Assembly (NCBI GenBank): GCA_964634785.1
Contig: CAZWKF010000002.1
Span: 1 to 33,492 of the forward strand
From: an uncultured Muribaculaceae bacterium
GTDB lineage: Bacteria; Bacillota_I; Bacilli_A; RF39; UBA660
Reading direction: 5' to 3'
DNA: 33,492 nt
Position 1 is the first letter of the stretch. Each line of letters opens with the position of its first letter. The notes below the pieces were generated by a model, which saw nothing but the letters and a program-made list of their open reading frames with translations, made no database searches and was not told the origin of the DNA. The position numbers and the translations under genes are program-made. Below, one piece after another: positions 1,036 to 33,492 of the stretch.

Positions 1036-3568
1036 AATCATCTAAATCAAAGAAATCATCAAAATAAGCATCATCGGAAACATCAGACTTGTTCTCAACC
1101 TTTTTTTCAGGAGTAACTTCCTCTTTTGGTTTATTCTCAATAACCGGTTCAGCCGCCATGTATTCTTTTTCAACTACTGGACTTTCCTCTTTTGATTCAA
1201 CTGGAGGAACAATAGGCTCTTCCTTCACTGGTTCTTCTACGCTTACTTCTTCTTTTGATTTCAAATTTAATAAATCGGAGAATGTTTCAATTTTGGAAGT
1301 TTCTTCACGTACAGGTTCCTTTTTTTCTTCAATAATTGGTGCCTTTATTGGGGAAGTTTCAATTGTTTCTATTCCCTCGATAAAGTCTTTCTTAGGTAGT
1401 TTATTCTCATTGATTATTGGTGTAATATTGGCAAATGGATTGGTCTCCACTACGTTATTTCTATCAATAGCTGCTTCTTTATTAATGGTGAGTGACGACT
1501 CCTCTGTTTCCTTTTTCTCAAGTTCCACTTTTTCAGGAAGTGGTGGAAAAATAGAAGGTGTAGCATTTGTCTCTTTTTTCTTCTTTTCCTCTTCTTCTTT
1601 TTCTTGTGCCTCTAATTCAGCAATTTTTGCATCTATTCTTTTTACCAAATCATCAACATCAAAATTTGGTCCTCCTGCTGGTTTTGGTAATGGAGATTTT
1701 GGTTTTGATGCAAATGGATCTTTTCCGGCATTACGTGCAGCCATAAATTCTTCAAAAGTTGGAATTTTAGGCATTGGTCTGTCCCCCGACATTCCTCCAA
1801 ATGGATTGAAATCTGGTAATCCTGGTTTCTTAGGATCAAAACCATCCATCATCTTACTCTTTTTGCGCAATTTTACATGCTCTTTAATATCAAATAATTG
1901 AATTTCTTTTTTCTCACGTGGAACAAATTCAGCTTTTCCAAAGTCTTTATCTCCCCAGTCAACATTAAATCCTTGTACTAGCTGGGTCTTAAATGGATGA
2001 TAACGGTTTCTTAAAATAATAACTTCATTCATCTTCATCTTCTGTAAATCAGAAATAGTTACAAGTGGTTGACTTGCCGTTTTATCATCTTTTTTCGATT
2101 TTACTTCACCACACATTTTCGAGATTTCTTCCAATGCTGAAAGTTCAGTGGTCAAAAGATAAATCAAATTACCACAGTTTGAACGAATCGTTTCCGCATC
2201 TTCCTTCCCATATACTTCATTTAACTGGGCAAAGTTTTGAATGATAAAAGTGAATCGTATTTGTCTTGAACGTGCAGCTGTAACCATTGTTGTAACATCT
2301 TTTAAAGGTGGCATATTAGCAAACTCATCAAGAATAAAATTTGTTCTTATAGGTAGTTTTCCACCCGATTCCTGTGCGACATCAATTAAAGTTTCATAGC
2401 ATTGTTTAATAAAAATAGTTGCTAAGGCATGATAAGTAGTCTTCTCATCATGGATAATCATAAAGACAGCTGTCTTTTGTTTTCCAATATCACGCATTTC
2501 AAAATCTGAATGCGAAAGCATCTCCGATAGTTGTTCACGTGATGCAAATAGACGAATCTTTTGACGGAAAACAGCTAAAATACTTCCCTTTGTCTCAGTT
2601 GGAGAATTAATCGTATTGCTTGCAAAGGTATAAGGACTTGATGATTCTCCCTTTAAGGTAAAATACTCTTTAATATAGTTAGAACCAGCACCAAACTTTT
2701 CTTCACCAACCGTTGTCATATAACTGATCGTATTGATATTAACTTCTTCCTCTTTGGCATCTTCAAACAATCCTAAAACACATCCTGAAAAATAGTCACT
2801 TGCTGAATTTGACCAGAAAGGATCCTGCGCTTTAGGATCAGCTAAAATATTTAGGGCAACGTCATCTACAAGCTCGATTGCTTTATCCACATTTCCCGCT
2901 TTATATAAGCGATAAGGAAGTGTAAGAGGATTCCATGCATTTCCAAGAGTTGGTTCACGGAAATTTAAAACAACAATTTTATAACCTAAAGATTTCATTA
3001 ATTCAGCATGGTTTTTATAGATCTCTCCTTTTGGATCGGTAAAAATCATACTTTCTCCATGTTTACATAAACTGTAAATCAATGGGTCAACGACTGCAGT
3101 TGTTTTACCCGAACCAGTAACACCAATAACCAAAGTGTGGTTTTCAGAATCATCTACCCACATATTCTTTCCATCATTGATGAAGACAATTCCTCCAACT
3201 TCAGCAGTAGTATCTTTTACGCCAACACGATAGATCTTATAGGCTTTTTTCATCTCTTTTTCAGTTAACCAACGAGAATATCCACCTTCATCAGATTTAC
3301 CAAAAGAAAGCCCAATTCCAAATCCTTTTTGATGCTCAAAAATAGTCGAAGATACACTAAAGAAGATCGCAATTAAAACAGCAAAAAAGACAAACAAAGT
3401 GACAGGCAAATAAGTTCCTGTAAAAGCTTCTATAGGATTAAGCCCTTTAAACCCATCCCCATTAATAAGAGCCAATACATTTAGTACAGCAATTGCACAA
3501 AAATAAAGTAATACGATACAAAAACCACTAAAGATAGCAGCATCTTTTGGTGAAACTTTAAATTTCAT
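1034..3568 (-). CDS. Type IV secretion coupling protein (VirD4/TraG family) with a ~280-aa low-complexity C-terminal tail
   Basis: Two N-terminal TM helices. Walker A GVTGSGKTT. TraG/VirD4-type FILDEFANMP box. E/K/P-rich tail ending DDAYFDDFFDLDD. Confidence 0.9.
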   Translation of the reverse strand: MKFKVSPKDAAIFSGFCIVLLYFCAIAVLNVLALINGDGFKGLNPIEAFTGTYLPVTLFVFFAVLIAIFFSVSSTIFEHQKGFGIGLSFGKSDEGGYSRWLTEKEMKKAYKIYRVGVKDTTAEVGGIVFINDGKNMWVDDSENHTLVIGVTGSGKTTAVVDPLIYSLCKHGESMIFTDPKGEIYKNHAELMKSLGYKIVVLNFREPTLGNAWNPLTLPYRLYKAGNVDKAIELVDDVALNILADPKAQDPFWSNSASDYFSGCVLGLFEDAKEEEVNINTISYMTTVGEEKFGAGSNYIKEYFTLKGESSSPYTFASNTINSPTETKGSILAVFRQKIRLFASREQLSEMLSHSDFEMRDIGKQKTAVFMIIHDEKTTYHALATIFIKQCYETLIDVAQESGGKLPIRTNFILDEFANMPPLKDVTTMVTAARSRQIRFTFIIQNFAQLNEVYGKEDAETIRSNCGNLIYLLTTELSALEEISKMCGEVKSKKDDKTASQPLVTISDLQKMKMNEVIILRNRYHPFKTQLVQGFNVDWGDKDFGKAEFVPREKKEIQLFDIKEHVKLRKKSKMMDGFDPKKPGLPDFNPFGGMSGDRPMPKIPTFEEFMAARNAGKDPFASKPKSPLPKPAGGPNFDVDDLVKRIDAKIAELEAQEKEEEEKKKKETNATPSIFPPLPEKVELEKKETEESSLTINKEAAIDRNNVVETNPFANITPIINENKLPKKDFIEGIETIETSPIKAPIIEEKKEPVREETSKIETFSDLLNLKSKEEVSVEEPVKEEPIVPPVESKEESPVVEKEYMAAEPVIENKPKEEVTPEKKVENKSDVSDDAYFDDFFDLDD

Positions 3569-3624
3569 ATTAGCCCTTCCTTCTCTTCGTTTATTATAAA
3601 CTATTTTTACGCATTTTTCTACTA

Positions 3625-4236
3625 TTATTTATTTGCATTCATGATTTTGATAAAAGCTCTTAAAAGAACAATAACAAGAACCACCCCTAAAATTGAAAAA
3701 ATAAAAATATAGATTCTATTTCTGGTTTTAGTCTCCTCCTGTTTTGTTTCTTTCTCTACGTCTTTTGTCGTTGTCGTTTCATTTGTCGTTTGTAAAAACT
3801 TAGTTGTTCGCGTTGTAGTCTTACTTGTCTTATTCGTACTTCCAATAATTCTTGCCCACTCTTCATCGGTTACCACTGGACGCGTTGTATTTTCCTTTTG
3901 TGGTGTATTCTTTACTAATACATCAATATAAAGATCATTATTTTCATACTTAGAGGTATAATCAAGACTATAGACACCTATATAGTCATCTTCTACGACA
4001 AGAGAATCAACAGTAAATCTTCCCTCTTTCATATTTTGGAGTGTATATGCATAATGATTCGTTTTTTCTAAAGCTACTTCAATCTCATCTTCATTAACAT
4101 CTGAGGTGAGTAAAACAATGGATCTTATTTTTTCCGTATCAACATTTTCTTCAAAAGAAGTCGAAAAATGAACATTCATAGCAAAACAAACTTCTGGAAA
4201 GGCCAATATCATCAATACAAAAAAAACTTTTTTCAC
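3625..4236 (-). CDS. Secreted, C-terminally anchored protein of unknown function (T4SS accessory candidate)
   Basis: GTG start 7 nt after AGAGG. N-terminal signal peptide (MKKVFFVLMILAFPEVCFA). Thr-rich stalk and a C-terminal TM helix. Confidence 0.55.
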   Translation of the reverse strand: MKKVFFVLMILAFPEVCFAMNVHFSTSFEENVDTEKIRSIVLLTSDVNEDEIEVALEKTNHYAYTLQNMKEGRFTVDSLVVEDDYIGVYSLDYTSKYENNDLYIDVLVKNTPQKENTTRPVVTDEEWARIIGSTNKTSKTTTRTTKFLQTTNETTTTKDVEKETKQEETKTRNRIYIFIFSILGVVLVIVLLRAFIKIMNANK

Positions 4237-4249
4237 TCTATCACCTCTC

Positions 4250-5374
4250 TTATTCTACACCTGCATATCGCAAAAAATAATCAAAATTATAATATTTTCC
4301 AGCAGTGACTCCCTTTATCCTATTTGCAGCATGAACGTATTTCCCATCCCCTATATAAACTCCAGTATGTCCATTGGCACTTCCCTTTGCTATTCTTAAA
4401 CCAATATCTCCTGGTTGTAAATCTTCTTCTCTTATTTGAATAAAGTTTTTTCCAATTAAACTATAAAGAGAACTTGTTCCTAGTCCGCCACCTTCATAAG
4501 GATTTACATCTGTTGCTGTCCACAATACCCATTGAACAAACCCTGAGCAGTCAAGTCCTGATGTAGGGAATCCAGTATCTCCAGGTCCAGTAGGTTTTCC
4601 TCCAAAATGATATTTTGACCCAACTTTTGAACTCGCTGTTAAAACAATAGCTTTTCTAATATCGCTTAACTCATTATAATTTATTCCCGTACTAGCTAAA
4701 ACCTGTTCTGATAAATCTTTTGATGTTTGGCTCGATACTGAACTGGATCCCGAAGAATTGCCATTCATATCTCCTTTAAAGGTATTTGTTAAATCAAGCA
4801 TTCCCCCAATGACAGGTCCTACTAAAATAGTGATAATAATAAGTAAGAGGGCAAATCCACTAGCAACAATAATAAGGGTATTCCTAAACCTCTTTTCCCT
4901 TATTGTCTTTTTTACCTTTTTTATATCTTTTATAGCATCAGTGACTTTTCCTTCTTTTAAATCCCCTACAACATCCATAGCACCATTTGCTACATCGGTT
5001 ACACCTGCTTTTTCTAAGACATCTGCTGTCATCTTTATCGCTTTATTATTTTCAGCAGCATCCGAAATAACTCCCACAGCTTGATCAACGGGACCACTTT
5101 CTAAGACTTCTTTGTCTTTTCCTAATGAAGCCCCTCCTGTTCCATAAGCAACAATTCCACGACCTCCAGCTTTTACAAGTTTTTTTACACTACTATCCTT
5201 TACTTCTCCATCTTTTCCAATTTCTTTCCCTGGTGCGACCTTATCTCCCACTTGATATTCTTCATTTTCAAGTATTTCGTTGTTTTGATACCCAAGGCCT
5301 CTATTTCCTAGTTTAAAGTTCATAGATGAACCTTTAGTATTCATCATTTTTCTATACCCCTTATCAAAGTTCAT
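4250..5374 (-). CDS. NlpC/P60-family peptidoglycan endopeptidase with a long N-terminal cytoplasmic region and a central TM helix
   Basis: GLDCSGFVQWV (catalytic Cys) and GHTGVYIGDGKYVHA (His). GGAGGTGA RBS 8 nt upstream of the ATG. Confidence 0.85.
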   Translation of the reverse strand: MNFDKGYRKMMNTKGSSMNFKLGNRGLGYQNNEILENEEYQVGDKVAPGKEIGKDGEVKDSSVKKLVKAGGRGIVAYGTGGASLGKDKEVLESGPVDQAVGVISDAAENNKAIKMTADVLEKAGVTDVANGAMDVVGDLKEGKVTDAIKDIKKVKKTIREKRFRNTLIIVASGFALLLIIITILVGPVIGGMLDLTNTFKGDMNGNSSGSSSVSSQTSKDLSEQVLASTGINYNELSDIRKAIVLTASSKVGSKYHFGGKPTGPGDTGFPTSGLDCSGFVQWVLWTATDVNPYEGGGLGTSSLYSLIGKNFIQIREEDLQPGDIGLRIAKGSANGHTGVYIGDGKYVHAANRIKGVTAGKYYNFDYFLRYAGVE

Positions 5375-5388
5375 CTATCTCACCTCCA

Positions 5389-5889
5389 TTATCTCACTTG
5401 TCCCCTCAAGGTAACTTTAACATTCATAACGCCTTTTTCAATGATTTCATATTGATAGTTCTCTGTATCAATAACAAGAAAACCATTCGCTGTTTTTCGA
5501 TAAACTTGAACCTTATTATTTTTACTCTTTACAGTTATTCGCTTCTTAAGCTCTTTTTGATATTCTTCTATTTTATCATGAAAAGCATTTTTTGTCTCAT
5601 CACTCAACATATCCCACGCTTCTTTTTCATTTACTAAAGTAGCATTCAAATACATTTGATAATATCTTTCCACCATGTCCACTTCCTCTATCTGCATGAC
5701 TTTATATTCATTATCCGCATAGTGATATTTAATATAATCTACTGTAGAATCATTCATAGCTTCACTTTGATAGATTTGATTTCCTTTAATAATACGTACA
5801 ATACCAAAGATAAAAAGAAAAAGAAGAACAATACCTAAAAGAACTAGAAGCCACTTATTCTCTTTTAAACTTATTTTAAACTCATTCAT
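5389..5889 (-). CDS. Small single-pass membrane protein (T4SS accessory candidate)
   Basis: An ATG at 5889 (MNEFKISL...) overlaps the upstream TGA as ATGAATGA and is preferred to the GTG at 5901. One N-terminal TM helix, then a ~120-aa soluble domain. Confidence 0.5.
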   Translation of the reverse strand: MNEFKISLKENKWLLVLLGIVLLFLFIFGIVRIIKGNQIYQSEAMNDSTVDYIKYHYADNEYKVMQIEEVDMVERYYQMYLNATLVNEKEAWDMLSDETKNAFHDKIEEYQKELKKRITVKSKNNKVQVYRKTANGFLVIDTENYQYEIIEKGVMNVKVTLRGQVR

Positions 5890-6403
5890 GACAAACCTCA
5901 CTAAAAGTCTTCTCTTCTATAGGCCGTATAGAAAAATGAAAGTTACTTTCATCTAACACGACTTGATAAAATACTTCTGATATCTTTTTTATTTCATTAA
6001 GATCCACTTTGTAACCTTTTACCACATACTGTGTCAAATCCTCTTTCACTCTTTTCTCACACATCGTTCGTGCCTCAAAGGAAATACTTGTTTTCTCGTT
6101 TTTTAATGTACTTATGACGTTTTTTTCTGTTAATTTTTTCTCTTCTTTGTATTCACTATCTAAAATATGAAGTACACTTTCCCTACTCCCAGCATTAAGA
6201 AATTGATAAAGCTTATCTATCGTAGCCGTTACGGTATAATAACGACTATAATCTTCTACAAGATGGTAAGTCTTATCATAAGTATTACTTCTTTTAAAGT
6301 CAATCTTAAAGAAACGAAGAAGGAAGAAAAGAATAAGAACAACAATTGCTAATATAAGCCAAAAGAATAAGACTTTTTTTTGTGTTTTATCTAAATCTTT
6401 CAT
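5882..6403 (-). CDS. Small single-pass membrane protein (T4SS accessory candidate)
   Basis: AGGAGGG RBS. One N-terminal TM helix, then a ~130-aa soluble domain. Confidence 0.5.
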   Translation of the reverse strand: MKDLDKTQKKVLFFWLILAIVVLILFFLLRFFKIDFKRSNTYDKTYHLVEDYSRYYTVTATIDKLYQFLNAGSRESVLHILDSEYKEEKKLTEKNVISTLKNEKTSISFEARTMCEKRVKEDLTQYVVKGYKVDLNEIKKISEVFYQVVLDESNFHFSIRPIEEKTFSEVCHE

Positions 6404-6411
6404 AGTCCCTC

Positions 6412-8751
6412 CTACAATCCAAAGATATTATGTCTTATTGGACTCATTTTGTCATTGACCTGCCAAAGGGCATAAGCTTTTTGATCTTCAGCAGTCGATT
6501 GAATGCAAGAGCCCGATCCGTTCTTTTCACATTTGGCCTCACGACAACTTTTTCCCACAATACTTGATCGTTCAGCAGTCATATATTTATTAATAGAAGG
6601 ATAATAGGCACATCCTCCAACTCCCCAATCGGTACTTCCATTAGAATTCTTTAACACTTTTACCCAATACTTTCCAATATAAGCATATTTTGACATCATA
6701 TCGGAAGCCGTATCATATTTTGAAACAACAGAGGCAAACCCTCGAATACCATCCGTAAGACTGCTATATTGACTACAAACCTTCGTTCCTTGCCCATTAT
6801 AGCAACGAATTCCCCAATAGTTATTAGAGCCATTACTTATTCCTGGAGAAAAACCTTCGACAACAGCGCGAACAACAACTAATTCTGGATTTACATTGTT
6901 TGCTATCGAAACATCATAGACTTCTTCGGCATGTCCAGCAAAAACATTTAAAAAGGTCTTGTCCTTTTTCGAAGAACAATTTCTCGTATTACAATAAGAG
7001 CGCATTTTAGAGACAAATTCAGCCCTCGTTAAGGAGGTTTGATGAACAGAAAAATCTCCTGATGCAAGTTTTGGCCTTGAATTGGATGCACTCATATAAT
7101 TCAAGACATCAACAGCATATGAAACACTTGCGCCTCCTTTGCGAAGTTCAAAATGTAGAGCATTTGTATTTGTTTTTCCTGTATTTCCCACATGACCAAT
7201 GACTTGTCCTTGTAAAACAGAATCGCCTACTTTGATATCTAGAACATCATTTAACTGAGCATAAATAGTATAATCTCCATTAGAATGAGAAATCATAACT
7301 TGATTTCCATATCCTTCATTACATTCATAATCCCCTACTTGGCAAGAATTAACAATACTTACAACTTCCCCACCATAAACAGCAATAACATTTGCTCCTG
7401 CTGGTGCACTGATGTCAATTCCATAGTTTATTTCTTCTTCGTTCGTTACAGCATTCTTTCTAGGACCATAATAGCTTGAAATTGTCGTACTTACAGGATC
7501 TTTAACGGCCAAAAGGACACCATTTTTTTCTTCCGTTTTACTACTTCCAATTGGCCAATAAAAACTCTTGCGTGTGGATTCTTCACTCGTAACATCGATA
7601 AAATCCCCATTCTCTCCAAATTCATCATAAGAAATACCATAGTTTTTTAAAACTTCAATAATATCATCAACTATGACTGAACGAACCTTTACAATTTGCT
7701 CTTCATATTCATCATAAAGTCCTTTTGCTTCTAGAGAATCACTACAAACATCATCTGTCATACATTTTACTCCAGCAGGTATCAGAACGTTTTCCTTAAA
7801 GCGCTCTTGCAAATGTGCCTTTCTATCAAAATAGATATTTTGTCTTAAAAAGTCAAAGTATCGATCTGTTGACACATGAGGATTATCATCATAGACGTAT
7901 TTTGAATTTTCAGGATAATCCTCTCCTAATTTCTCACATTCTTCATACTTTTTATCTTCAGGCACTCTTCCTAAAAATCCCACTGTTGCATTTCTTAAGA
8001 GTTTGGTATCATGAGCCCACTTACTGGAAAAATATTCCCAAAATCCATATTCATAACTTGAGAGACGATCGGCACATTTTTTTTCTTTAATAATTCCTAG
8101 TAAAGGAAGTTCAACCAAAGTCCCTTTTTCACAAGAAAGGTGTTCTGAGCCATCCTCTAATGTTTCTTCCTCAGGATCTCCATAGACCCCATAACATCCA
8201 GTATTATAGGCAATCATATTTTTAATAAGGATTTTTAAAGTATCCCTTTCTTCTTCATAATAGTTGGCTATTTCTTCTCCATCATATGTATATTTATCTT
8301 CTATATCAATATTGTCCATCTCTGATTCATCAATAACGTAAGCTGAATTTCCGCTTTGCCAATTTTTTTTATAATCTTCTCCATTATCTGAAAAGTCAAA
8401 AGGTGTCATATCAATAAAAACCGTTTCAATAATGAGATTGTCATTGATATAAAGACCATCTTCTTGATATTTAGCAAGTAATTTATATAGTTTTTTGTAA
8501 AATTTCTCTTGTTGTTTTAAAATAAGATCCTCACAAGAAGACTTATCTTCTTCATCTTTACAATATCCATACCAATAATCTTTATTGGCATCTTTAAATG
8601 TTTCCCAGTCAAAATCTTTATATTGAAAAGAGGCAGAAGAAATAGTTAACGGATTTAAGATGCATACAAAAAAAAGAACAAGAAAAGAAGACACAAGAAT
8701 TTTCTTGCTAATTATTGAACGTCTTATTTTTCTATTTGTTCTTAATTTCAT
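6412..8751 (-). CDS. Cys-rich secreted cell-wall protein: degenerate M23/LytM domain plus a C-terminal glucosaminidase/lysozyme-like domain
   Basis: N-terminal signal anchor. M23-like block SSYYGPR...NYGIDISAPAGANVIAVYGGEVV...GYGNQVMISHSNGDYTIYAQL...GHVGNTGKTNTNALHFELR. C-terminal NPELVVVRAVVEGFSPG...NNYWGIRCYNG. 18 Cys outside the anchor. Confidence 0.78.
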   Translation of the reverse strand: MKLRTNRKIRRSIISKKILVSSFLVLFFVCILNPLTISSASFQYKDFDWETFKDANKDYWYGYCKDEEDKSSCEDLILKQQEKFYKKLYKLLAKYQEDGLYINDNLIIETVFIDMTPFDFSDNGEDYKKNWQSGNSAYVIDESEMDNIDIEDKYTYDGEEIANYYEEERDTLKILIKNMIAYNTGCYGVYGDPEEETLEDGSEHLSCEKGTLVELPLLGIIKEKKCADRLSSYEYGFWEYFSSKWAHDTKLLRNATVGFLGRVPEDKKYEECEKLGEDYPENSKYVYDDNPHVSTDRYFDFLRQNIYFDRKAHLQERFKENVLIPAGVKCMTDDVCSDSLEAKGLYDEYEEQIVKVRSVIVDDIIEVLKNYGISYDEFGENGDFIDVTSEESTRKSFYWPIGSSKTEEKNGVLLAVKDPVSTTISSYYGPRKNAVTNEEEINYGIDISAPAGANVIAVYGGEVVSIVNSCQVGDYECNEGYGNQVMISHSNGDYTIYAQLNDVLDIKVGDSVLQGQVIGHVGNTGKTNTNALHFELRKGGASVSYAVDVLNYMSASNSRPKLASGDFSVHQTSLTRAEFVSKMRSYCNTRNCSSKKDKTFLNVFAGHAEEVYDVSIANNVNPELVVVRAVVEGFSPGISNGSNNYWGIRCYNGQGTKVCSQYSSLTDGIRGFASVVSKYDTASDMMSKYAYIGKYWVKVLKNSNGSTDWGVGGCAYYPSINKYMTAERSSIVGKSCREAKCEKNGSGSCIQSTAEDQKAYALWQVNDKMSPIRHNIFGL

Positions 8752-8768
8752 CTATTTCACCGCCTAAA

Positions 8769-10562
8769 CTATAGTCCTCCTCCACTACCGAAGGAATCTA
8801 ATTCATCTTGTGTAAGTTCTACATGAATACGCATTCTTCTTGATCCACAGACAAACAATGCTTCTCCTTGTGTATACGATTTAATACTTTCTTTTTCAGC
8901 ATCATTTAAATCAATTAATTTTGACAAATCTTCTACTGCTTGTTTACGAAGTCCCATGATTAAGTAATAAGAAGCATTATCAAAAATTGCTTTTCCATGC
9001 ATAATGACGTTTTCCGCTGCAAAGTCTGTCGGCTGTTGAGTAATAATAATCGTTCCTGTATTGTATTTGCGACTTCTTCTTTGCATCTGTGCTAAATATT
9101 CTGCTCCCAACTCGTTATTGCCAGAAAGAAGGATATGGGCTTCATCAACCATCATTACAGTATTCTTCGATTTATCTAAACAGAGTCCCCAAGCATATTT
9201 TAAAATATTGAAGAACAATGCATTGCGGATATTAGCATCACTGTTCATAACCTCTTTTATATTAAACACAATAAAGTCTGTATTCGGATCAACCGTTGTA
9301 TGTCCATTAAAGTAATAACGAAGTTCATTGACAAATGGGCGAACACGAAGTTCAAGTCTTTCCATCACATCTTTTTCTCTTGTAGCTTCTGGCATTGAAA
9401 GAAGTTTTCCCTTAATGGTAGCATAGACATCATCAAAGATTGGATAATTATCTGGTTTAAAATTAGCAAAGTTTGTATCGAAATCAATTCCAAAACGCTT
9501 ATAAGTCTCTTGAACGACCTCGGAAAACATAGCAAGCACATCATCTTCAATGGCAGGTGAATAATACTTCATGAAGGCTTTTAAAGACTGTAATGTTCTT
9601 GTTAATACAGTATAGCCAAGTCCTTGAGATAATTCCTCTTCATCTGAATCGACAATAACTTCAAGAGGATTAACCATACCATAAACGCCACCCTTACCAA
9701 GATCGACATTCGTTCCCCCATTTGTCTTACACAAATACTCAAGTTCATTTTCAGGATCAATACAGACAATCTGATATCCATTACGAATATGATTACGCAA
9801 CTGCAATTTAGCAGCTGTTGATTTTCCAGAACCTGATGTACCTAGCATAATCATATTGGCATTATTTCGATTATGTTCTTTTTTTATTTGATACAAGAAT
9901 TGATTAAATAGAACGACTCCACCTGAGAAATCAATTCCAAAAAGAGTCGATAGCCCAGGATCCTTTATGCTATCAAAAACAAAAGGATACATGGCAGCAA
10001 TCGTTGGTGCCGGAATAGGAATCCCAATACGTGACTCTACATCCTGTTTAGGGAATATTGGAAGCATTGATTTCAACACTTTTTCCTGTTCAAACATCAT
10101 AGGAATTGCACGCATATTTAAAGCAGATAAGAAGCTCTTAACCGATAATTTCTTTGCATCTAGTTCATCTTGTGTATCAGCAACTATCATAATATGCATT
10201 TGAAAATCAAAGATTTTTGATTGTGTTGCCGCAAGCATTTGAACAAAACTTTCCATTGATTCATAATCAATACGAATACGTTCCTTTAATGTCGCATCAT
10301 GCTCTTTTGACCAAGCTTCTTTTAATTCAGCAATCTCTTTATTAATCGTCTTTTGCATCGTGGCAAAGTCAATAGGAATGTGCTTAATACTAATTTTTAC
10401 TCCTGGAATAGAAGTAATATTGCTTAAAAAACCAGCTCCAATAATTTTAGGATATTCTAGCACAGTCAATATAGTAGCATATTTATCACTGATCATAAAT
10501 TCATTGATTTTAAAATTCATTCCCTTAGGAGCTATTTCACTTTTTAGTGACGCTTTAGACAT
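8769..10562 (-). CDS. virB4: VirB4-family T4SS ATPase, C-terminal (ATPase) part
   Basis: Walker A GTSGSGKST and Walker B MMVDEAH. The start overlaps the upstream stop by 8 nt (ATGTCTAA). Confidence 0.9.
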   Translation of the reverse strand: MSKASLKSEIAPKGMNFKINEFMISDKYATILTVLEYPKIIGAGFLSNITSIPGVKISIKHIPIDFATMQKTINKEIAELKEAWSKEHDATLKERIRIDYESMESFVQMLAATQSKIFDFQMHIMIVADTQDELDAKKLSVKSFLSALNMRAIPMMFEQEKVLKSMLPIFPKQDVESRIGIPIPAPTIAAMYPFVFDSIKDPGLSTLFGIDFSGGVVLFNQFLYQIKKEHNRNNANMIMLGTSGSGKSTAAKLQLRNHIRNGYQIVCIDPENELEYLCKTNGGTNVDLGKGGVYGMVNPLEVIVDSDEEELSQGLGYTVLTRTLQSLKAFMKYYSPAIEDDVLAMFSEVVQETYKRFGIDFDTNFANFKPDNYPIFDDVYATIKGKLLSMPEATREKDVMERLELRVRPFVNELRYYFNGHTTVDPNTDFIVFNIKEVMNSDANIRNALFFNILKYAWGLCLDKSKNTVMMVDEAHILLSGNNELGAEYLAQMQRRSRKYNTGTIIITQQPTDFAAENVIMHGKAIFDNASYYLIMGLRKQAVEDLSKLIDLNDAEKESIKSYTQGEALFVCGSRRMRIHVELTQDELDSFGSGGGL

Positions 10563-11148
10563 CGCTCATCACCGTCCCATATTCTATTCTTTTACTATCA
10601 TTTAAGAAACTATCCATTAAGACACGAACATCATCTTCATTAATTTGTCTTGAAACAAGTCCAGCTCCTGCTAACCCAGAAATAATGTTATGAATTCGCT
10701 TTTGCATCACTTCTAGATTTTTAGGTGTATCTTTAAATAATAGATAAAATTCTGTGTCAACAGCATTAATTGCTGGTCCTGTAAACATATCACACTTATT
10801 AATATCTTGGAGAATAAGTTTTCGTACTTGTGGAGATGTTTCTTCACGATTAAGCATTACCTCTAGTTCGGATTTATAAAGGTTAATATCGACTGGGCGA
10901 TCACAACAGATAAGCCAGAATTCAAAATTAAGTGTATTATAGAAATTTCTCAATTGATAAATAACTCTTGTTTGTGTTTCCTGATCACTAATAAAGATAT
11001 TTCGTGGTTCTATCTTAACTCCAGTTACAAGTTGTTTTCCTTCCAACATCTTTCCTTCTACTTCGATAAATCCTCCACGAATATTCGTTACTGGAAGCCA
11101 ATCTTCCGTATATTTAGAACTATCTGTCTTTTTGTCTTTCGTCTTCAT
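10555..11148 (-). CDS. VirB4 N-terminal-domain-like protein (separate ORF)
   Basis: WLPVTNIRGGFIEV...VTGVKIEPRNIF pattern, as in the N-terminus of Gram-positive VirB4 proteins. An ATG at 11148 sits 5 nt after GGAG and is preferred to the GTG at 11154. Confidence 0.65.
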   Translation of the reverse strand: MKTKDKKTDSSKYTEDWLPVTNIRGGFIEVEGKMLEGKQLVTGVKIEPRNIFISDQETQTRVIYQLRNFYNTLNFEFWLICCDRPVDINLYKSELEVMLNREETSPQVRKLILQDINKCDMFTGPAINAVDTEFYLLFKDTPKNLEVMQKRIHNIISGLAGAGLVSRQINEDDVRVLMDSFLNDSKRIEYGTVMSDV

Positions 11149-11440
11149 ACACACTCCAACCTTTCCAATAATAGGTTCTCCTATTACTTAAGAACCCATA
11201 GATATTTGCCGTTAATGTCCACATATTTCGATGGTTTGGAACGGGCAAAACCATCGCTCCTGTCACCAATGCAGGGGAAAAGCAGACAAGCAAATCACTG
11301 ATTGTATCTGTCGGTAACAAAAATAGCAAGATCGTCGTTATCCCTATTCCTGTACCAAAGATAATCAAATCAATGGGTTCAAACAATCCCAAAAGAAGCA
11401 TTGATCTTTTCGAATTTGCAGGAATCATATATTGATTCAT
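11120..11440 (-). CDS. PrgI/TcpE-like small two-TM T4SS membrane protein
   Basis: 106 aa. AAGGAGGAG RBS. Two hydrophobic helices. Positioned directly upstream of virB4, as in Tn916/pCW3-type loci. Confidence 0.55.
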   Translation of the reverse strand: MNQYMIPANSKRSMLLLGLFEPIDLIIFGTGIGITTILLFLLPTDTISDLLVCFSPALVTGAMVLPVPNHRNMWTLTANIYGFLSNRRTYYWKGWSVYEDERQKDR

Positions 11441-11455
11441 TTTATCTCCTCCTTT

Positions 11456-11881
11456 TTATTTTCTTTGATAAGCATCTAAAATCTTTTTTATCTTCTCTAA
11501 TTCTTTTACTAAGTATTCATAATTCACATAGATTTCCGTAGGTGATAAAGTTACTCCATCACCAAAGGCCAGTTGTAATCTTGCTCTTTCAATTTTGTGA
11601 AATCTCACATATTGACTCAATTCTTTTTGAACTTTTCTTAACGCCTTATTTTCATCAAGCATCTTAGCAATTAACTTCACTCTTTTTACACGATACTTCA
11701 GTTCAATATCTCTTTTTGAATATCGACTCTTGCCAAGAAGTACTTGATCTAAAAGCAATCTTTCTTCGTAGTCGATTTCTTCCATCGCATCTTTATCGAA
11801 AAGGACAATGTATTCAGCTAAACGATTGTATTCTTCTGCAAAGTTTTGTAATACGGGTAATTCAAATCGGTTATAGTCCAT
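11456..11881 (-). CDS. Hypothetical cytoplasmic, helical/coiled-coil protein
   Basis: 141-aa ORF tightly packed within the T4SS operon. No recognisable motif. Confidence 0.45.
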   Translation of the reverse strand: MDYNRFELPVLQNFAEEYNRLAEYIVLFDKDAMEEIDYEERLLLDQVLLGKSRYSKRDIELKYRVKRVKLIAKMLDENKALRKVQKELSQYVRFHKIERARLQLAFGDGVTLSPTEIYVNYEYLVKELEKIKKILDAYQRK

Positions 11882-11889
11882 AACTTAGC

Positions 11890-14076
11890 CTACTTACTTT
11901 CCTTTTTACTTTCTTTTTCTTGTTGTTTTATTTGACTAGTAATAATAATATTTTGTTGTTGTCTTCCCATCTCTTTAGAAACATCTTGTAGAACACCAAT
12001 TTCTTGAACTGTTGCTGTATGATTTTTATCACTCAATTTCTTTATTAATTGATCAACAGTGGTAAGACCCAAACTCTCCACTTTCTTATTCAACAACTTG
12101 GCATTATCACTGCTGATATTTGCCATATTCTTAGATAAATCTTTAAGCATTGTTGCCATATAAGTATTGGCAGCTTCTTTATACTCCCCATTAACAGCTT
12201 TTGTAATAGCTTTACGCTTTTTCTCTTTAAATAACGTCTCTAATTGTTCCTTACTCGTGTATGTTTGAAGATTTCCATTTTCATCTGCATACTTGGCTGT
12301 TCCATTACGTAATAATTCATCCTTTAAAGTTTTAAGTTCATTATCTAAGCTATCCATAGTTTTCTTAGCTAGCTCAGTATACTTTTTCAAATAGTCATTC
12401 ATTTCTTTTAACGAATCACTGGCAATATTGGCATTGACTTGAGCACCAATTATAGCATCTCTGAATTCACTAACATTTTCTGTAATGTTTTCGCCACGAT
12501 TGCGAATACGATTTGACACTCTTTCGCCAAAATTGGCTCCTAAGTTTTCATTGGCATTGTAAGCAGCTACTCCCGATGCTGACCCTCTAGTCGCCGCATT
12601 GGCAGTATCTTGTAAAGACACTTTTCCTGTACGATTTTTATAACCACCTTTTCCTCCAGCGATAATACCACGTGGAAGATCTTTAAGAGCATATCCAGCG
12701 GACCTTAGGCCAATATGTGAATGGTTGTCACTCGCATTATCATTGTTTTCCTTTAATACACTATAACGGTTCTTAAACGATTGATAAGTAGCAGCAATTC
12801 CACCACCTATAGCTCCTACACCAATTGCACCAGCTTTCATTCCATACTCATTTGATTCTAAGTTCTTCTTAATGCCTGGTTTAAAGTTCATTCCGGCAAA
12901 CATACCACTGTTGCTTGAGAAGACATCCTTGAAGAGTTGTGGACAATCTTTTGCAAATTTTAAAATACCAAGGATTAATAAAATATTTGCCAAACACTGT
13001 GTGGCTATACCGCCTGGCACTCCATCATTACTATCCCAAATAATATTCCAAAACGATGGAACTAATTGAATCAGTGTCACTGCAAGAAAGACAATAGCCA
13101 AACGAACAAATAGTTCGAGATAAGTCTTCTTCAACTGACCAAACCAAGCATCAAATGTTTTCTTTCCCGCAGGAAAGACATTCATAAGAACAGGGATTGG
13201 CGCAATAAGCTGTAACACACCCAATTTAACAGCACGTACACCTAAATCAATTGCAAAACTAATGAAGAACCAAGCCGCAATGACTGCTGTAATAACGCTG
13301 AGAATCCAACCGTAATACATTCCGCCTTCTTCATTAATGGCGAGTTGTAAAGTATCATTTAACGCAAGTGGTGCAATAGAAGTCATCAATGTTCTCTTAA
13401 GACCATTTTGTCCACTTGTATAGTTCTGATACCATGTATTCAAAGCTCCTGCATATGCTTCACAAGTTTCTGGATTTCCTGCTGTCTCATCATCTCCGCC
13501 ACCTTTTTTGCATACATCTATGGCAACTTGAATATCATCCTTCCCTATAAACTCGCCTTTTTCATCAAAATAATCCGAATACTGTGTATTTTCCGGATGG
13601 AAATTAGAAGAGAATAACATCATCGCGATTTGTTGTCCAGGGTCAGTTCCTAACGTTCCTCCTTCATCAAGAATTAATGCTTCAATCGTATGGTTGTCTA
13701 AAACATGCTGTTGGAATACAGAAAGATAGCCAAATATCGTAGGTAAGATAATGATCAAAAGGATGGAAATAATGGTCTGTTTCACTAACTGTGTGGCAGA
13801 TTTTCCTGATTTTCCATCTGGATCTATAATGAGCATAATCAAATAGTAGGCAAAGACAAAGATCATAACAATAGAAATCGTTTGATAAATACGTTCTGTA
13901 ATATGATTAAAAAGATCCTTTCCTCCAGGAGTTCCAAAAATATCAACTTTCGAAATGGCATAAAAAATAGAATAAGAAAAGGATACTAAAGAATAGGCAA
14001 TCACATCAAAAACTTCAAGCAACAACGAGGCAAAAAACTTTAAAAAATACCCAATAGCAAAAAAGGACACATTCAT
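11890..14076 (-). CDS. VirB6/TrbL/TcpH-like polytopic T4SS membrane protein with a Gly-rich and coiled-coil C-terminal half
   Basis: Multiple TM helices over the first ~400 aa. First gene after the promoter. An ATG at 14076 sits 8 nt after GGAG and is preferred to the GTG at 14085. Confidence 0.62.
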   Translation of the reverse strand: MNVSFFAIGYFLKFFASLLLEVFDVIAYSLVSFSYSIFYAISKVDIFGTPGGKDLFNHITERIYQTISIVMIFVFAYYLIMLIIDPDGKSGKSATQLVKQTIISILLIIILPTIFGYLSVFQQHVLDNHTIEALILDEGGTLGTDPGQQIAMMLFSSNFHPENTQYSDYFDEKGEFIGKDDIQVAIDVCKKGGGDDETAGNPETCEAYAGALNTWYQNYTSGQNGLKRTLMTSIAPLALNDTLQLAINEEGGMYYGWILSVITAVIAAWFFISFAIDLGVRAVKLGVLQLIAPIPVLMNVFPAGKKTFDAWFGQLKKTYLELFVRLAIVFLAVTLIQLVPSFWNIIWDSNDGVPGGIATQCLANILLILGILKFAKDCPQLFKDVFSSNSGMFAGMNFKPGIKKNLESNEYGMKAGAIGVGAIGGGIAATYQSFKNRYSVLKENNDNASDNHSHIGLRSAGYALKDLPRGIIAGGKGGYKNRTGKVSLQDTANAATRGSASGVAAYNANENLGANFGERVSNRIRNRGENITENVSEFRDAIIGAQVNANIASDSLKEMNDYLKKYTELAKKTMDSLDNELKTLKDELLRNGTAKYADENGNLQTYTSKEQLETLFKEKKRKAITKAVNGEYKEAANTYMATMLKDLSKNMANISSDNAKLLNKKVESLGLTTVDQLIKKLSDKNHTATVQEIGVLQDVSKEMGRQQQNIIITSQIKQQEKESKKESK

Positions 14077-14134
14077 GATCATCACTCCTGAAAAAACAGC
14101 TTATGTTTTCTTTCAATTACAATACACTAACATA

Positions 14135-14163
14135 ATTATAACGGAATTAAAAGTGTTTTACAA
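14135..14163 (-). promoter_or_regulatory. Sigma-A-type promoter for the T4SS operon
   Basis: Minus strand reads TTGTAA, a 17-nt spacer, then TATAAT. An 8-bp hairpin (14152-14173) followed by TTTTAATT overlaps the -35 and could terminate the upstream tmk-like gene. Confidence 0.5.
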
Positions 14164-14215
14164 TAAAAACACTCAATTTTAGACAAATAAAAAGGATAAT
14201 TTACAAAAATGCAAA

Positions 14216-15163
14216 TTATCTTGTCAATCTTTTCATCACTTTTTGATAAACTTCTTCACTTATTTCTTCTGGATTTTTGATATTTTCAAGTGTTGGAGCT
14301 TCTTCCGGTTCTCCTCTAAGGCATTCAATGGTTTCAAAGTCATAAAGATTAGCTACTTCAACAAAGGCTTTCTCAGCATGATATAAATGTTCCATATCTC
14401 GTTCATTTTCGTCCATCTTTTCAGCTCTTAATTTTTTAAGAAGATTAGCATAATCTGTTGGCATATGTAAAAATATTCGAGCATCACTTTGAGGAAGCCC
14501 TAAAGCCCTAAATTCTAAATCAGCAATCCATTCATATATTTCTTTTCTAATTTTATCATCCAGTATCTTTCCTCCTTGATGTCCCATATTTGAATACGTA
14601 TAACGATCTAACACAATGTTAAATCCCTGATTCAGAATGCTTTCCATAATAGGCATATTGGCTTTTCTATCTGCTGCATAGTAAAGAGTTGAAACCATAG
14701 CATCTACATTAGGTGCTCCCTCAGAAAACCAACCATGAGATAAAGAACTCATTACTTTATCTAAGGTTATTGAAACAAGCACCATATCCTCTAATGATAT
14801 TTGAGGTAATCTTTCTTTCAATGCATTCTTTAATGATTCTTTTATAACCATCATCTCTTCAGAAGAAAACTCCTCTGGATGAAACATCTTTAAAACATTA
14901 AAAATATGTTCTAGATTACAACTACCTGATTTTAATCCACTAAAGATATTTTTTGTTTCACTATAGATCATTTCTTCTGCTAAATAAGGTTTCCCTAGAT
15001 ACGGAAATCCCACAATTCTTCCAGTTGCTGAAGCATAATCTGGGAAACTATAGTAAACAGACTGTTTTCCATCCTTTTTTAATCTTTCAATTAGTTTTTT
15101 CGATTGTGTTTCTTTCCCTGATAAGTCAGTTCCTTCAATAACAATTAATTTTCCTCTTTCCAT
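14216..15163 (-). CDS. Thymidylate-kinase-family (dNMP kinase-like) protein with a ~75-aa internal insertion
   Basis: P-loop IVIEGTDLSGKETQ, then YYAADRKAN and VLDRYTYSNMGHQGG, which are Tmk signatures. 315 aa, against roughly 200-215 aa for typical Tmk. Confidence 0.72.
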   Translation of the reverse strand: MERGKLIVIEGTDLSGKETQSKKLIERLKKDGKQSVYYSFPDYASATGRIVGFPYLGKPYLAEEMIYSETKNIFSGLKSGSCNLEHIFNVLKMFHPEEFSSEEMMVIKESLKNALKERLPQISLEDMVLVSITLDKVMSSLSHGWFSEGAPNVDAMVSTLYYAADRKANMPIMESILNQGFNIVLDRYTYSNMGHQGGKILDDKIRKEIYEWIADLEFRALGLPQSDARIFLHMPTDYANLLKKLRAEKMDENERDMEHLYHAEKAFVEVANLYDFETIECLRGEPEEAPTLENIKNPEEISEEVYQKVMKRLTR

Positions 15164-15394: not shown

Positions 15395-15838
15395 TTATTT
15401 TGTTTTAAAAAGAACACGATTCAAGAAAAGAGATTCCATATCTTCTAAATCCTTCTTTTTCCCTCTAATTATTTCTGTTTTATCAAATAGAATTTCTCCA
15501 TCAGAAAGAAGATAATCCATTCGAGAAAGACTTTCTCTTTCATAAAAAATTGTTTCTTCTACCATATTTCCATAGAAATGAATAGGTAAATCCATTGAAA
15601 TACTCTCTAAATACGCATTATAGGATTCCATTGAAAAATTGTCTATTGAATCTAAAATAACATAGAAGACAATATTTATTCCCTTTTTAACATTTGTTTC
15701 CATTCCTTCAAGATCGTCACACATAAAAACATTCATAAATACACTTTTAATTCCTTCATTCTGATAAAAAGTGTCTCTCACTTTTTCGATTGTTTCCTCA
15801 AGTAGACTTGCACTTTCTTCATTTAATCCAATTATCAT
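15395..15838 (-). CDS. Hypothetical protein (147 aa)
   Basis: GTGAGGG RBS. No recognisable catalytic motif. Confidence 0.45.
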   Translation of the reverse strand: MIIGLNEESASLLEETIEKVRDTFYQNEGIKSVFMNVFMCDDLEGMETNVKKGINIVFYVILDSIDNFSMESYNAYLESISMDLPIHFYGNMVEETIFYERESLSRMDYLLSDGEILFDKTEIIRGKKKDLEDMESLFLNRVLFKTK

Positions 15839-31178: not shown

Positions 31179-31207
31179 ATTATACATACATTTATTCATT
31201 TTGTCAA
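31179..31207 (-). promoter_or_regulatory. Consensus sigma-A promoter of the fibre/adhesin operon
   Basis: Minus strand reads TTGACA (31207-31202), a 17-nt spacer, then TATAAT (31184-31179), ~30 nt upstream of the ATG at 31146. Confidence 0.7.
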
Positions 31208-31255: not shown

Positions 31256-32470
31256 TTATCTCTTGCAATTCATTTCGTAAGTTTTTCTAAGACAAATTTC
31301 TGAACCAGTATCTCCACTTCGATATTTTTCTAATACCTCTTTATTTGTAATTTTATAATGTCTTATAAACTCTTTTTCTCCTAAGAATAAAGCTCGACTT
31401 GAACAGCTACCGCAAAAATAATAGAATCTCGCTAAAGTTAGTTCTGCACTTTGCATTAAATTTTTAGGATTATTATAAATATAATCTAAACTGTTAGTAA
31501 AGAAAGCTACATATAGTTTCTCATTAATGCTATTTTCACTCATTGTAAAGTAAGCAGGAAAGCGAAGTAATATATCCAGCGCTTTTTTCTCATCATAGTA
31601 ATTTACTAGAATATCTTTTTTCTTTTTTAAAGTTTTATAGTCTATAGCTATAACAACTAGAGAATTTTCCATAGCCGATCTCATCCCATCTTCATCAAAC
31701 CCTAGTTTTTTAAAATTTTTTGAGAATTCATAAAGAACTTGAGGTGAGCAATTTAAACAGTTAGGATTTGCAAAAAGGCTCTTCTTAAATTTGTCTTTAT
31801 CAACTTTTAAAGCATTTGCAATATCAAAAAGGGCAAAAAGGCCATCAAAATTAAAATTTGCTCTTTTTTTCATTTTTATTCTGAGAATGTCTACTAATGG
31901 AATATGATAAGGTGCTATTACCTCTTCAACACTTTGATAGAAATGCTCATCTAATTCCAATATTTTACAGTTATACCCAGCACAAGTAGCAATCTCTTTT
32001 TTACTTAATCCAATTCCCATTAAATAGGAAATAATCTGTTGTACATGATGCGGTTCATCAAAAATAACAGCGACATTTTCATAAAACATTCTTTCAATTC
32101 GTTCTTCTGCTAAGCCTAGTTCTCTTAGTAAGTCTCTGATTCTTTCCATATTTACGCGATAGACCTTATCACTTTCTACTACTCTATCTTTAATGCTCGC
32201 TAACACACTCGGATAACGTTTATAGTAAGTGCTTTGCTTTTTATAAGTCATTGCCTTGGGATAATTAGCAGCTAAATCTCTTATTTGTTCTTTCGTATAG
32301 TTTAAATCTAATAAGTATTGTTCAAAAGTAGGAAAGTTCTCTTTCATTGTATCTAGATCATTTTTTATCGTATTCCATTTTTTAAGAATCATAATAATCT
32401 GCTCGTCACTAAATCCTAATGGCCTAAATAATTGAAAAGCTTTCATTGTCTCAACATTACTTATAAACAT
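31256..32470 (-). CDS. Helical-repeat protein, mTERF-like (paralog 1)
   Basis: Iterated L..LG[FL]s..ei units (PLGFSDEQII, ELGLAEERIE, GIGLSKKEIA, KLGFDEDGMR) and LLRFPAYFTMSENSINEKL. An ATG at 32470 is preferred to the TTG at 32473. Confidence 0.45.
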   Translation of the reverse strand: MFISNVETMKAFQLFRPLGFSDEQIIMILKKWNTIKNDLDTMKENFPTFEQYLLDLNYTKEQIRDLAANYPKAMTYKKQSTYYKRYPSVLASIKDRVVESDKVYRVNMERIRDLLRELGLAEERIERMFYENVAVIFDEPHHVQQIISYLMGIGLSKKEIATCAGYNCKILELDEHFYQSVEEVIAPYHIPLVDILRIKMKKRANFNFDGLFALFDIANALKVDKDKFKKSLFANPNCLNCSPQVLYEFSKNFKKLGFDEDGMRSAMENSLVVIAIDYKTLKKKKDILVNYYDEKKALDILLRFPAYFTMSENSINEKLYVAFFTNSLDYIYNNPKNLMQSAELTLARFYYFCGSCSSRALFLGEKEFIRHYKITNKEVLEKYRSGDTGSEICLRKTYEMNCKR

Positions 32471-32476
32471 CAAAAA

Positions 32477-32530
32477 TACACCCCTTCTTTTTATTGAGGT
32501 GTATTATAGCACAATTTAATAAAATTGCAA
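32477..32530 (-). promoter_or_regulatory. Candidate promoter overlapping a terminator-like hairpin between the two paralogs
   Basis: Minus strand reads TTGCAA, a 16-nt spacer, then TGcTATAAT (32530-32503). This is followed by TACACCTC-loop-GGGGTGTA + TTTTT (32503-32477), which also contains the RBS. Confidence 0.4.
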
Positions 32531-32535
32531 ATTTT

Positions 32536-33492
32536 TTACTTTATAGATTTCACTTTACCTAATCTTTTATGATAGAACTCAATAATCTCTTGATTACTCG
32601 CCCCATACAGTTTTTCAAATTGGTTCTCACCCATAAAAAGAATACGTGGAAAGCAACCATTAAAATAAGCATATCTTGCCAAAGTAAGTTCAGCACTTTG
32701 AATTAAATTTTTAGGATTCTCACAAATAAATTCTAAACTTTCCGTTTTTTTACAAGCCTCTAATTTTGATCGAATGTTTTCTTCACTCATTGTAAAATAA
32801 GCTGGGAATCTTACCATAATCTGCATGGCTTTATCTTCTTCTACATATTCCATCAATATTGATTTTTTAGCTTTCATGACTTCTTCATCTGTAATCATGA
32901 GTTTAATTGACTTTTCAAGCATTTCACGTATTTCTTCATCAGAAAATCCTATCTTATGACATCTTTCTATACATCCATAGCTCACTTCTTCCCCACTACT
33001 AATGACTTCTACATATTGTAAAAATTGTTTTCTAAATTTTGCTTTATTTACATTTAACTTATTTGCTACTTGAAAGACAGCTAAAATATTTTTTAAATTT
33101 AAAGCCCTTTTCTTTCGCATTTGACTTCTTAAAATATCGATAAGCGGAATATGATAAGGCGCAATTATTTCAATGATGTCACGATAATAAAGTTCATCAT
33201 AAACAAGTATTTTATAATTCAAGGTAGCCATCTTTCCTATTTCTTCTTTTGTTAGTCCCAATTGAATAAGGTAATCAATAATTGCTTTCAAATGCTCTGG
33301 ATCATCAAATATAAAAGATATATTCTTATCAAAGAAATACTCCATTTTCTTTTCAGGAATATCTAAATCGACTAATATCTTTCTTATTTCATCCATATTC
33401 ACTCTATATTCATTTACATTATCAACAACAGCATCTCTTATATTATTTAATACTTCTATTCGTTTTTGGCAATAATTTTTAACATCTTTTAC
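32536..33492 (-). CDS. Helical-repeat protein, mTERF-like (paralog 2), 5'-truncated by the window edge
   Basis: The frame stays open from 33402 to 33492 (VKDVKNYCQKRIEVLNNIRDAVVDNVNEYRVN-MDEIRK). This extension aligns with IKDRVVESDKVYRVNMERIRD of paralog 1. Shares IAPYHIPL[IV]DILR, RFPAYFTMSE and NPKNL[MI]QSAELTLAR. Confidence 0.5.
   Translation of the reverse strand, partial: VKDVKNYCQKRIEVLNNIRDAVVDNVNEYRVNMDEIRKILVDLDIPEKKMEYFFDKNISFIFDDPEHLKAIIDYLIQLGLTKEEIGKMATLNYKILVYDELYYRDIIEIIAPYHIPLIDILRSQMRKKRALNLKNILAVFQVANKLNVNKAKFRKQFLQYVEVISSGEEVSYGCIERCHKIGFSDEEIREMLEKSIKLMITDEEVMKAKKSILMEYVEEDKAMQIMVRFPAYFTMSEENIRSKLEACKKTESLEFICENPKNLIQSAELTLARYAYFNGCFPRILFMGENQFEKLYGASNQEIIEFYHKRLGKVKSIK

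Follow-up and report, generated by a model that had tools for sequence, protein, structure and literature searches.

A tandem pair of genes for mTERF-fold proteins at a variable chromosomal site of a gut Bacilli genome

Introduction

Reviews still describe members of the family of mitochondrial transcription termination factors (mTERF) as absent from bacteria, as does a 2026 survey of the family (PMC12977773), whereas one paper of 2024 reported prokaryotic mTERF-like DNA binders. The latter, named pTERF, are tandem-repeat proteins from gut metagenome-assembled genomes (MAGs) and consist of 3-11 units of 35 residues each (PMC11417379, Nucleic Acids Res 2024). pTERF1 (MBQ3414883.1) binds ACTNNNAGTC with a dissociation constant (Kd) of 1.9 nM, and both pTERF1 and pTERF2 bind specific double-stranded DNA (dsDNA) in vitro, with a Kd near 2 nM (PMC11417379). 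Here we describe two adjacent genes for proteins of this kind, mT-A and mT-B, located at one end of the contig CAZWKF010000002.1, which was analysed over its entire length of 33,492 bases (the window; contig C2 of a 1.6-Mb MAG of 191 contigs, 88.5% complete and with 3.8% estimated contamination). An earlier sequence-only reading of the window had compared both products with mTERF proteins and had called the family overwhelmingly eukaryotic. The comparison holds in our analysis, while the second statement is the textbook view and has been outdated since pTERF was published (PMC11417379).

As the kind was already known from pTERF in 2024, the present locus is a further example and not the first one. 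It adds a homologue of the organellar mTERFs, recognizable at the sequence level, in a defined reduced-genome lineage of gut Bacilli, along with a map of the distribution, duplications that arose independently, a natural fusion and a C-terminal module specific to the family. It also supplies constructs bearing on what bacterial mTERFs bind and do, and material on the direction in which the fold was transferred between bacteria and eukaryotes. The locus alone reveals no new mechanism.

Two paralogous genes at the contig end

The region is filled by two co-oriented open reading frames (ORFs) on the minus strand, 31256-32473 and 32536-33492, the second of which is open at its 5' end. The features read from this region are the following.

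31256..32470, minus strand: mT-A, a complete gene for a 404-aa mTERF-fold protein of about ten three-helix motifs and a family-specific C-terminal cap (NPKNLMQSAELTLAR ... F..E..F...Y); basis, ORF, Pfam PF02536 at 56.9 bits, all-helical AlphaFold2 model (pLDDT 85.9) and top Foldseek matches MTERF1, MTERF3 and MTERF4
32536..33492, minus strand: mT-B, the 3' 318 codons of a paralogous mTERF-fold gene truncated by the contig end; PF02536 at 46.0 bits
32503..32531, minus strand: promoter-like signal of mT-A (TTTGCA, 17 bases, extended -10 TGC-TATAAT), from a consensus scan
about 32481-32487, minus strand: ribosome-binding site of mT-A (GAAGGGG), from the sequence

The most likely start of mT-A is the ATG at 32470, because the 404-aa product then agrees with the N-termini of both paralogues (MFIS...); this product is identical to the protein-collection entry P0001. 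A second contig, C143, begins with 55 bases that it shares with the end of the window, and it encodes the 75 N-terminal residues of mT-B (MFISYEETNMAFTFF...) from position 280 down to 56 on the minus strand, so that full-length mT-B has 393 aa. mT-A and mT-B are 43% identical across 316 residues (E 4e-88). The earlier proposal of tandem paralogues is therefore confirmed, with its gene bounds corrected at the start of mT-A and at the 5' part of mT-B, which lies on C143. The isoelectric point (pI) of mT-A is 8.7 and that of full-length mT-B is 6.3. Both proteins are predicted to be cytoplasmic, since neither sequence shows a signal peptide or a membrane segment. A PF02536 search of the whole genome matches mT-A and mT-B only. 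A weak match on contig C134, considered as a third paralogue, is a MerR-type membrane regulator and was rejected as a false positive. Rfam and tRNA scans of the window gave no matches.

A promoter-like signal for each gene had also been proposed, and this is borne out by the arrangement of the upstream regions. An extended -10 and Shine-Dalgarno block (TGTGYTATAAT ... GGGTG ... ATG) is nearly the same 5' of mT-A and mT-B, the signal of mT-B being located outside the window on C143, and the same block is kept 5' of the single orthologue in a sister species (G012). The near identity of the block before both genes suggests that the duplication copied the promoter. To judge from these signals, mT-A and mT-B can each be transcribed on their own.

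Both proteins belong to the mTERF fold family

The Pfam scores of both proteins lie well above the PF02536 gathering cut-off of 23.1 bits. A profile built from 31 members of the family matches protein chains of the PDB with E-values of 1e-20 for MTERF4, 2.8e-18 for MTERF3 and 6e-18 to 1.5e-16 for several MTERF1 chains, and Tetrahymena mS93 is also matched. A single-sequence phmmer search against the PDB chains gave no match, and the NCBIfam search gave no meaningful match for the window's proteins.

The AlphaFold2 model, computed from a 16-row alignment, is all-helical (mean predicted local distance difference test score, pLDDT, 85.9; predicted TM-score, pTM, 0.70) and is composed of about ten helix-helix-short-helix units; residues 92-107 form a disordered linker, and a cap is present at the C-terminus. 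The structure comparison with Foldseek places mTERF proteins (MTERF1, MTERF3, MTERF4 and mitoribosomal ones) in all of the top 16 positions among PDB entries, with a probability of 1.00, a best E of 1e-5 and about 380 aligned columns; TALE proteins come next in the ranking. The global TM-score is 0.36-0.45 against DNA-bound MTERF1 and 0.56-0.62 when normalised to MTERF3 or MTERF4. Modest global TM-scores are usual among solenoids which differ in pitch. Because the Pfam, family-profile and predicted-fold matches agree, mT-A and mT-B are almost certainly genuine members of the mTERF fold family, as had been supposed from the letters of the sequence.

Degenerate repeats and a family-specific C-terminal module

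The helical-repeat units described earlier are present in the translations with all of their quoted motifs (LGFSDEQIIMILKKW, IGLSKKEIATCAGYNCKIL, IGFSDEEIREMLEKSIKLM, LGLTKEEIGKMATLNYKIL, RFPAYFTMSE, IAPYHIPL.DILR and NPKNL.QSAELTLAR). A loose motif for the repeat start occurs five times in mT-A and six times in mT-B, at the equivalent positions 18, 56, 118, 153, 221 and 256, compared with 0.3-0.4 occurrences in shuffled sequences; the observed count was reached in none of 2000 shuffles. The units of about 35 residues are degenerate, and the best lag identity within mT-A or mT-B is only 0.08-0.10, without any sign of periodicity.

Conservation among the window's proteins is highest in a C-terminal module (NPKNL[IM]QSAELTLAR ... 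F.GE..F...Y), which lies past the region that can be aligned to the eukaryotic mTERFs. The same module (PKxL[IM]QS.EL[ST].AR ... F..E..F..Y) also ends proteins built of regular 35-residue units. One of these is a 682-aa protein from a Clostridia MAG (L042) with 47% identity at lag 35, and another is a 516-aa protein (L040) with an identity of 0.33 at the same lag. Moreover, P0058, a member of the alignment of the 400-aa proteins, is a strong match when the regular-repeat L042 protein is used as the query. As judged from these sequences, the module appears to be a hallmark of a bacterial mTERF-like family in small-genome gut Bacillota.

Comparison with described mTERF-type proteins

The window's proteins resemble pTERF in being bacterial, in their source in MAGs of animal-gut Bacillota, and in their mTERF-type three-helix units of about 35 residues in variable number. 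Thus they are prokaryotic gut-MAG proteins with mTERF motifs, as the mostly Bacillota-derived pTERF are, but they lack the near-identical 35-residue tandem units of the latter, their repeats being degenerate. They also differ in the presence of an extra N-terminal region, which has the disordered linker mentioned above, and in forming a paralogous pair. The C-terminal module is shared with regular 35-residue repeat proteins of the published pTERF architecture, and for this reason mT-A and mT-B are placed in the same bacterial family as the pTERF-type proteins, as a clade of it with degenerate repeats. Their direct kinship with pTERF1 itself is inferred; pTERF1 (MBQ3414883.1) was not recovered among the homologues of the regular-repeat relative.

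Human MTERF1, the mitochondrial transcription termination factor (PDB 3MVA, 3N6S), shares the fold and a similar number of motifs with the window's proteins, and is the top Foldseek match. However, the identity is only 14-16%, and the low global TM-score indicates that the geometry of the superhelix differs. In addition, the window's proteins lack organelle targeting and end in a C-terminal cap that only the bacterial family has. The base-flipping residues of MTERF1 are R162, F243 and Y288. Human MTERF3 (3M66) and MTERF4 (4FP9, 7O9K), which are ribosome-biogenesis and rRNA-binding proteins, provide the best E-value (MTERF4) and the best target-normalised TM-scores. In contrast to these, the window's proteins have no NSUN4-type methyltransferase partner, and by their distribution they are accessory and not essential. 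TALE and other modular DNA-reading solenoids are likewise helical solenoids, but their match is weak (E 0.02, TM about 0.2), and neither the repeat-variable diresidues nor the regular repeats of TALE are present in mT-A or mT-B.

Distribution of the family

A word-indexed homologue search returned one close relative only, and the alignment, being too diverse as it stood, had to be reduced before it could serve for pattern scans. When 1.84 billion representatives were searched exhaustively with HMMER, 126 clusters were obtained at E < 1e-3. All of these are metagenomic, and some lie on contigs of 40-88 kb; they include about 25 full-length relatives of 390-415 aa and one 802-aa fusion. In genomes, PF02536 was found in 7 of 21 other species of the genus (8 of 22 with the present genome included), in none of 19 other genera sampled and in none of 14 controls. 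With the family-specific profile, relatives were detected in 22 of the 200 further genera searched within the family, where they frequently form tandem arrays, and none in about 350 genomes from 29 other families of the class. The MAGs with relatives are labelled as uncultured Bacilli, Clostridia and Mycoplasmatota, with one Paratractidigestivibacter bin; they come from animal guts and have genomes of 1.1-1.5 Mb. Examination of mobile elements gave no relatives: tblastn of mT-A found none in 72,556 plasmids and none in 50,697 phages, and no relative was found in a scan of viral contigs. mT-A and mT-B are patchy chromosomal accessory genes.

A lineage-specific expansion is seen in a Bacilli MAG of 1.5 Mb from water deer cecum (RGIG8542, G722), which has about 17 mTERF-like genes and 40 profile matches (loci C1:191-11359, C13:17997-22213 and C33); on one contig, at least 11 of the genes stand in tandem.

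mT-A and mT-B do not conform to the definition of organellar mTERFs as nuclear-encoded and imported proteins. They are bacterial chromosomal genes with bacterial promoter and Shine-Dalgarno signals, flanked by bacterial genes and syntenic at orthologous positions in eight bacterial species of the genus. These observations also bear on the possibility that a eukaryotic mTERF gene was misplaced in a bacterial MAG by assembly or binning. The fragmentation of the MAG and its estimated contamination would permit such an error, but the genes reside on a 33-kb contig of bacterial genes with matching GC content, carry no introns, and are found in synteny in independent MAGs of the eight species and in Logan assemblies. 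The probability of an artefact is accordingly negligible.

Duplication and fusion

In the maximum-likelihood tree, mT-A groups with the single copy of G012, and mT-B is placed outside of this pair (100/100 support). This grouping implies that the pair in the window predates the split of the two species and that G012 retained one copy. Tandem pairs are also present in G006 and G014, which belong to a different genomic arrangement (arrangement 1, below), and the upstream and downstream copies of that arrangement form two separate, older clades. The separate clades for the two arrangements indicate that tandem duplication occurred at least twice. Fused proteins are found as well: G007 has one of 805 aa, and the metagenome collection has one of 802 aa (P0003). 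In both fusions, the N half falls into the clade of the upstream copies and the C half into that of the downstream copies, again with 100/100 support. The tandem partners probably act together, because equivalent tandem pairs have been fused into one 805-residue protein in a sister species.

Proposed function

The fold, the distribution and the fusions are together consistent with a reading that we favour with some confidence, namely that mT-A and mT-B are a nucleic-acid-binding, probably DNA-binding, pair of mTERF-fold proteins which act jointly and are encoded by non-mobile chromosomal accessory genes. Each protein would be an alpha-solenoid in which about ten three-helix motifs of 35 residues, degenerate in sequence, are followed by the closing C-terminal module, and the inner face of the solenoid would bind nucleic acid, as in MTERF1, MTERF3, MTERF4 and the pTERF proteins. 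The target would probably be duplex DNA at particular sites, where mT-A and mT-B would act together and without catalysis, as a roadblock or a regulator. From the sequences, nucleic-acid binding as such appears likely. Sequence-specific DNA binding, suggested by analogy, is a more tentative proposal, with chances that we place slightly short of even. Duplex DNA is preferred over RNA because the only prokaryotic relatives tested bind dsDNA (PMC11417379) and because the patchy occurrence argues against a core ribosomal role.

Several observations weigh against this reading. The overall charge of the proteins is weak, and mT-B is slightly acidic (pI 6.3). The repeats are degenerate and, because identity at any lag does not exceed 10%, a modular correspondence of one repeat to one base is not indicated. 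No conserved gene neighbour was found across genera, except for an acidic mini-mTERF partner (below), so the genomic context gives no target. Lastly, the best sequence match in the PDB is the rRNA-binding MTERF4, and the eukaryotic relatives include other RNA or ribosome binders (MTERF3, mS93), which is why RNA binding has to be considered.

In that case, mT-A and mT-B would be assembly or processing factors for rRNA or another structured RNA, or would act in intron splicing, as plant mTERF4/15 do. It is in keeping with such a role that the MTERF4 match (1e-20) comes from intermediates of mitoribosome assembly, that mS93 is matched too, and that six sister species carry the genes directly 3' of infC-rpmI-rplT. 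However, only 8 of the 22 species in the genus and 22 of the 200 other genera have the genes, and all of the roughly 350 genomes of other families in the class lack them. The slot between rplT and tdk is variable and carries unrelated genes elsewhere, no NSUN4-like partner gene is adjacent, and the tested prokaryotic relatives bind dsDNA (PMC11417379). We therefore regard an RNA-directed role as unlikely, although it is the alternative with most in its favour.

A wider extension of the DNA-binding proposal is that the clade represents a bacterial branch which is nearer in sequence to the organellar mTERFs than the published pTERFs are, that its members, working in pairs or as fusions, form double solenoids with about 20 motifs and bind specific chromosomal sites as roadblocks, and that the family might also be the trace of an mTERF-fold exchange which took place between gut bacteria and eukaryotes. 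We consider this extension rather improbable; if true, it would amount to a bacterial counterpart of mitochondrial transcription termination.

Genomic neighbourhood and the question of a mobile element

The window also contains a type IV secretion system (T4SS) of the Gram-positive type, with a coupling protein (T4CP), VirB4, a VirB6-like protein and cell-wall hydrolases.

1034-15163: T4SS block
1034-3568: T4CP
8769-10562: VirB4
11890-14085: VirB6-like protein
14216-15163: TMK-like protein

The VirB4 was detected in 56 of the 60 genera sampled from the family, with 62-78% identity, and follows the taxonomy; the T4SS is accordingly inherited vertically in this lineage and does not constitute a conjugative element. 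Most genomes that carry the T4SS lack mTERF genes. In those species of the genus whose surroundings were read, the T4SS adjoins nucleotide-salvage genes (tdk, histidine phosphatase, AAA_28 kinase and TMK-like). The T4SS looks domesticated and chromosomal, and perhaps serves DNA uptake or nucleotide scavenging.

Two arrangements of the mTERF genes are seen in the genus. In arrangement 1, present in six species and on one metagenome contig, a P-type ATPase gene is followed by infC, rpmI, rplT, a gene for a 152-aa protein (p10), the mTERF slot with one gene, two genes in tandem or a fused gene, and tdk, and then by the histidine phosphatase, AAA_28 kinase and TMK-like genes, VirB6 and the remaining T4SS genes. 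Arrangement 2 is that of the present genome (G000) and G012. It comprises genes for a giant 2189-aa surface protein, a 172-aa protein and a 505-aa cadherin-like protein, the mTERF genes (two in G000, one in G012), a gene for a 991-aa protein, the fibre operon, and genes for TspO, Ku, ligase, GH25 and a thioredoxin-like protein, before the T4SS. A functional link of mT-A and mT-B to the fibre operon was considered and rejected, since the adjacency exists only in G000 and G012.

The sequence-only reading had proposed that the proteins regulate a conjugative element or assist its DNA processing in place of relaxase-associated proteins. In all eight mTERF-carrying species of the genus the genes are indeed located upstream of the T4SS block, on the same strand and at a distance of 3.5 to 16 kb. 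In the other genera, however, they are nowhere near a T4SS, and plasmids, phages and viral contigs are negative. As the T4SS is itself family-wide and mostly unaccompanied by the patchy mTERF genes, the proposal is not upheld and is left with a very small probability. The closeness to the fibre operon and to the T4SS has no demonstrable functional meaning; because the contents of the slots vary and no neighbour is conserved across genera, the genes are regarded as accessory cargo of variable chromosomal slots.

A partner gene is seen only outside the window's genome. In other genera, long mTERF-like genes are adjoined by a gene for a conserved mini-mTERF of about 130 aa, which is strongly acidic (pI 4.1-4.4) and is absent from the genome studied here.

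L033:8493-8903: acidic mini-mTERF
L034:8871-9254: acidic mini-mTERF
L035:9252-9671: acidic mini-mTERF
L036:5372-5776: acidic mini-mTERF
L037:9235-9630: acidic mini-mTERF
L047:665-1087: acidic mini-mTERF

It may also be asked whether the proteins are eukaryote-like effectors, acquired from a eukaryote and exported, for instance by the T4SS, to act on the organelle nucleic acids of a host or protist. The domain family is otherwise eukaryotic, and its bacterial members are patchy, fast-evolving genes of gut-associated reduced genomes, arranged in tandem arrays and numbering about 17 in one 1.5-Mb MAG, with linkage to the T4SS in the present genus. On the other hand, no export or translocation signal was identified in the proteins, the T4SS is of the Gram-positive conjugation type and linked to the genes in one genus only, there is no sign of an intracellular lifestyle, and in other genera the conserved genes for acidic mini-partners, together with the organisation of the operons, resemble those of cytoplasmic complexes. 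We hold an effector role to be highly improbable, though not quite as remote as a role in conjugation. A defence function is not supported either, as PADLOC gave no matches for mT-A, mT-B, the fused form or p10. The variable slot of the sister species harbours metabolic-type genes (NUDIX, spermidine-synthase-like) and no classic defence genes; a reverse transcriptase also occurs there.

Further observations on the variable slots and related proteins

The slot between rplT and tdk is an accessory-gene hotspot. In species of the genus without mTERF genes it is occupied by a gene for an unrelated spermidine-synthase-like protein of 358-408 aa with a methyltransferase fold (L055:5627-6703 in G003; L056:5414-6640 in G008). 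In the sister species G006 and G018 (L017:12414-14153 and L023:1016-2764), genes for a 348-aa reverse transcriptase (RVT_1) and two proteins of about 120 aa are situated between rplT and p10/mTERF, with a 566-aa protein and a 107-aa fragment of the same family encoded beside the reverse transcriptase. This cassette looks like a diversity-generating retroelement.

The p10 gene directly precedes the mTERF gene in the six sister species of arrangement 1 and appears to be translationally coupled to it. In the window, a 147-aa ORF at 15395-15838 (minus strand), adjoining the TMK-like gene, has no Pfam match and is a weak homologue of p10 (24.7 bits).

A perfect TTGACA-17-TATAAT consensus is present at 31179-31207 (minus strand), in the 109-base spacer after mT-A and just 5' of the gene for the 991-aa protein, which is Cys-rich. 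Because of this position, the fibre-side genes probably have a strong promoter of their own.

In P0164, an ENA metagenome protein of 588 aa, a full-length cytidylate kinase (240 bits) is joined to some nine regular mTERF-like units of 35 residues and to the C-terminal module. Taken with the neighbouring tdk, TMK-like and AAA_28 genes of the genus, this fusion hints at a connection of bacterial mTERFs with nucleotide kinases.

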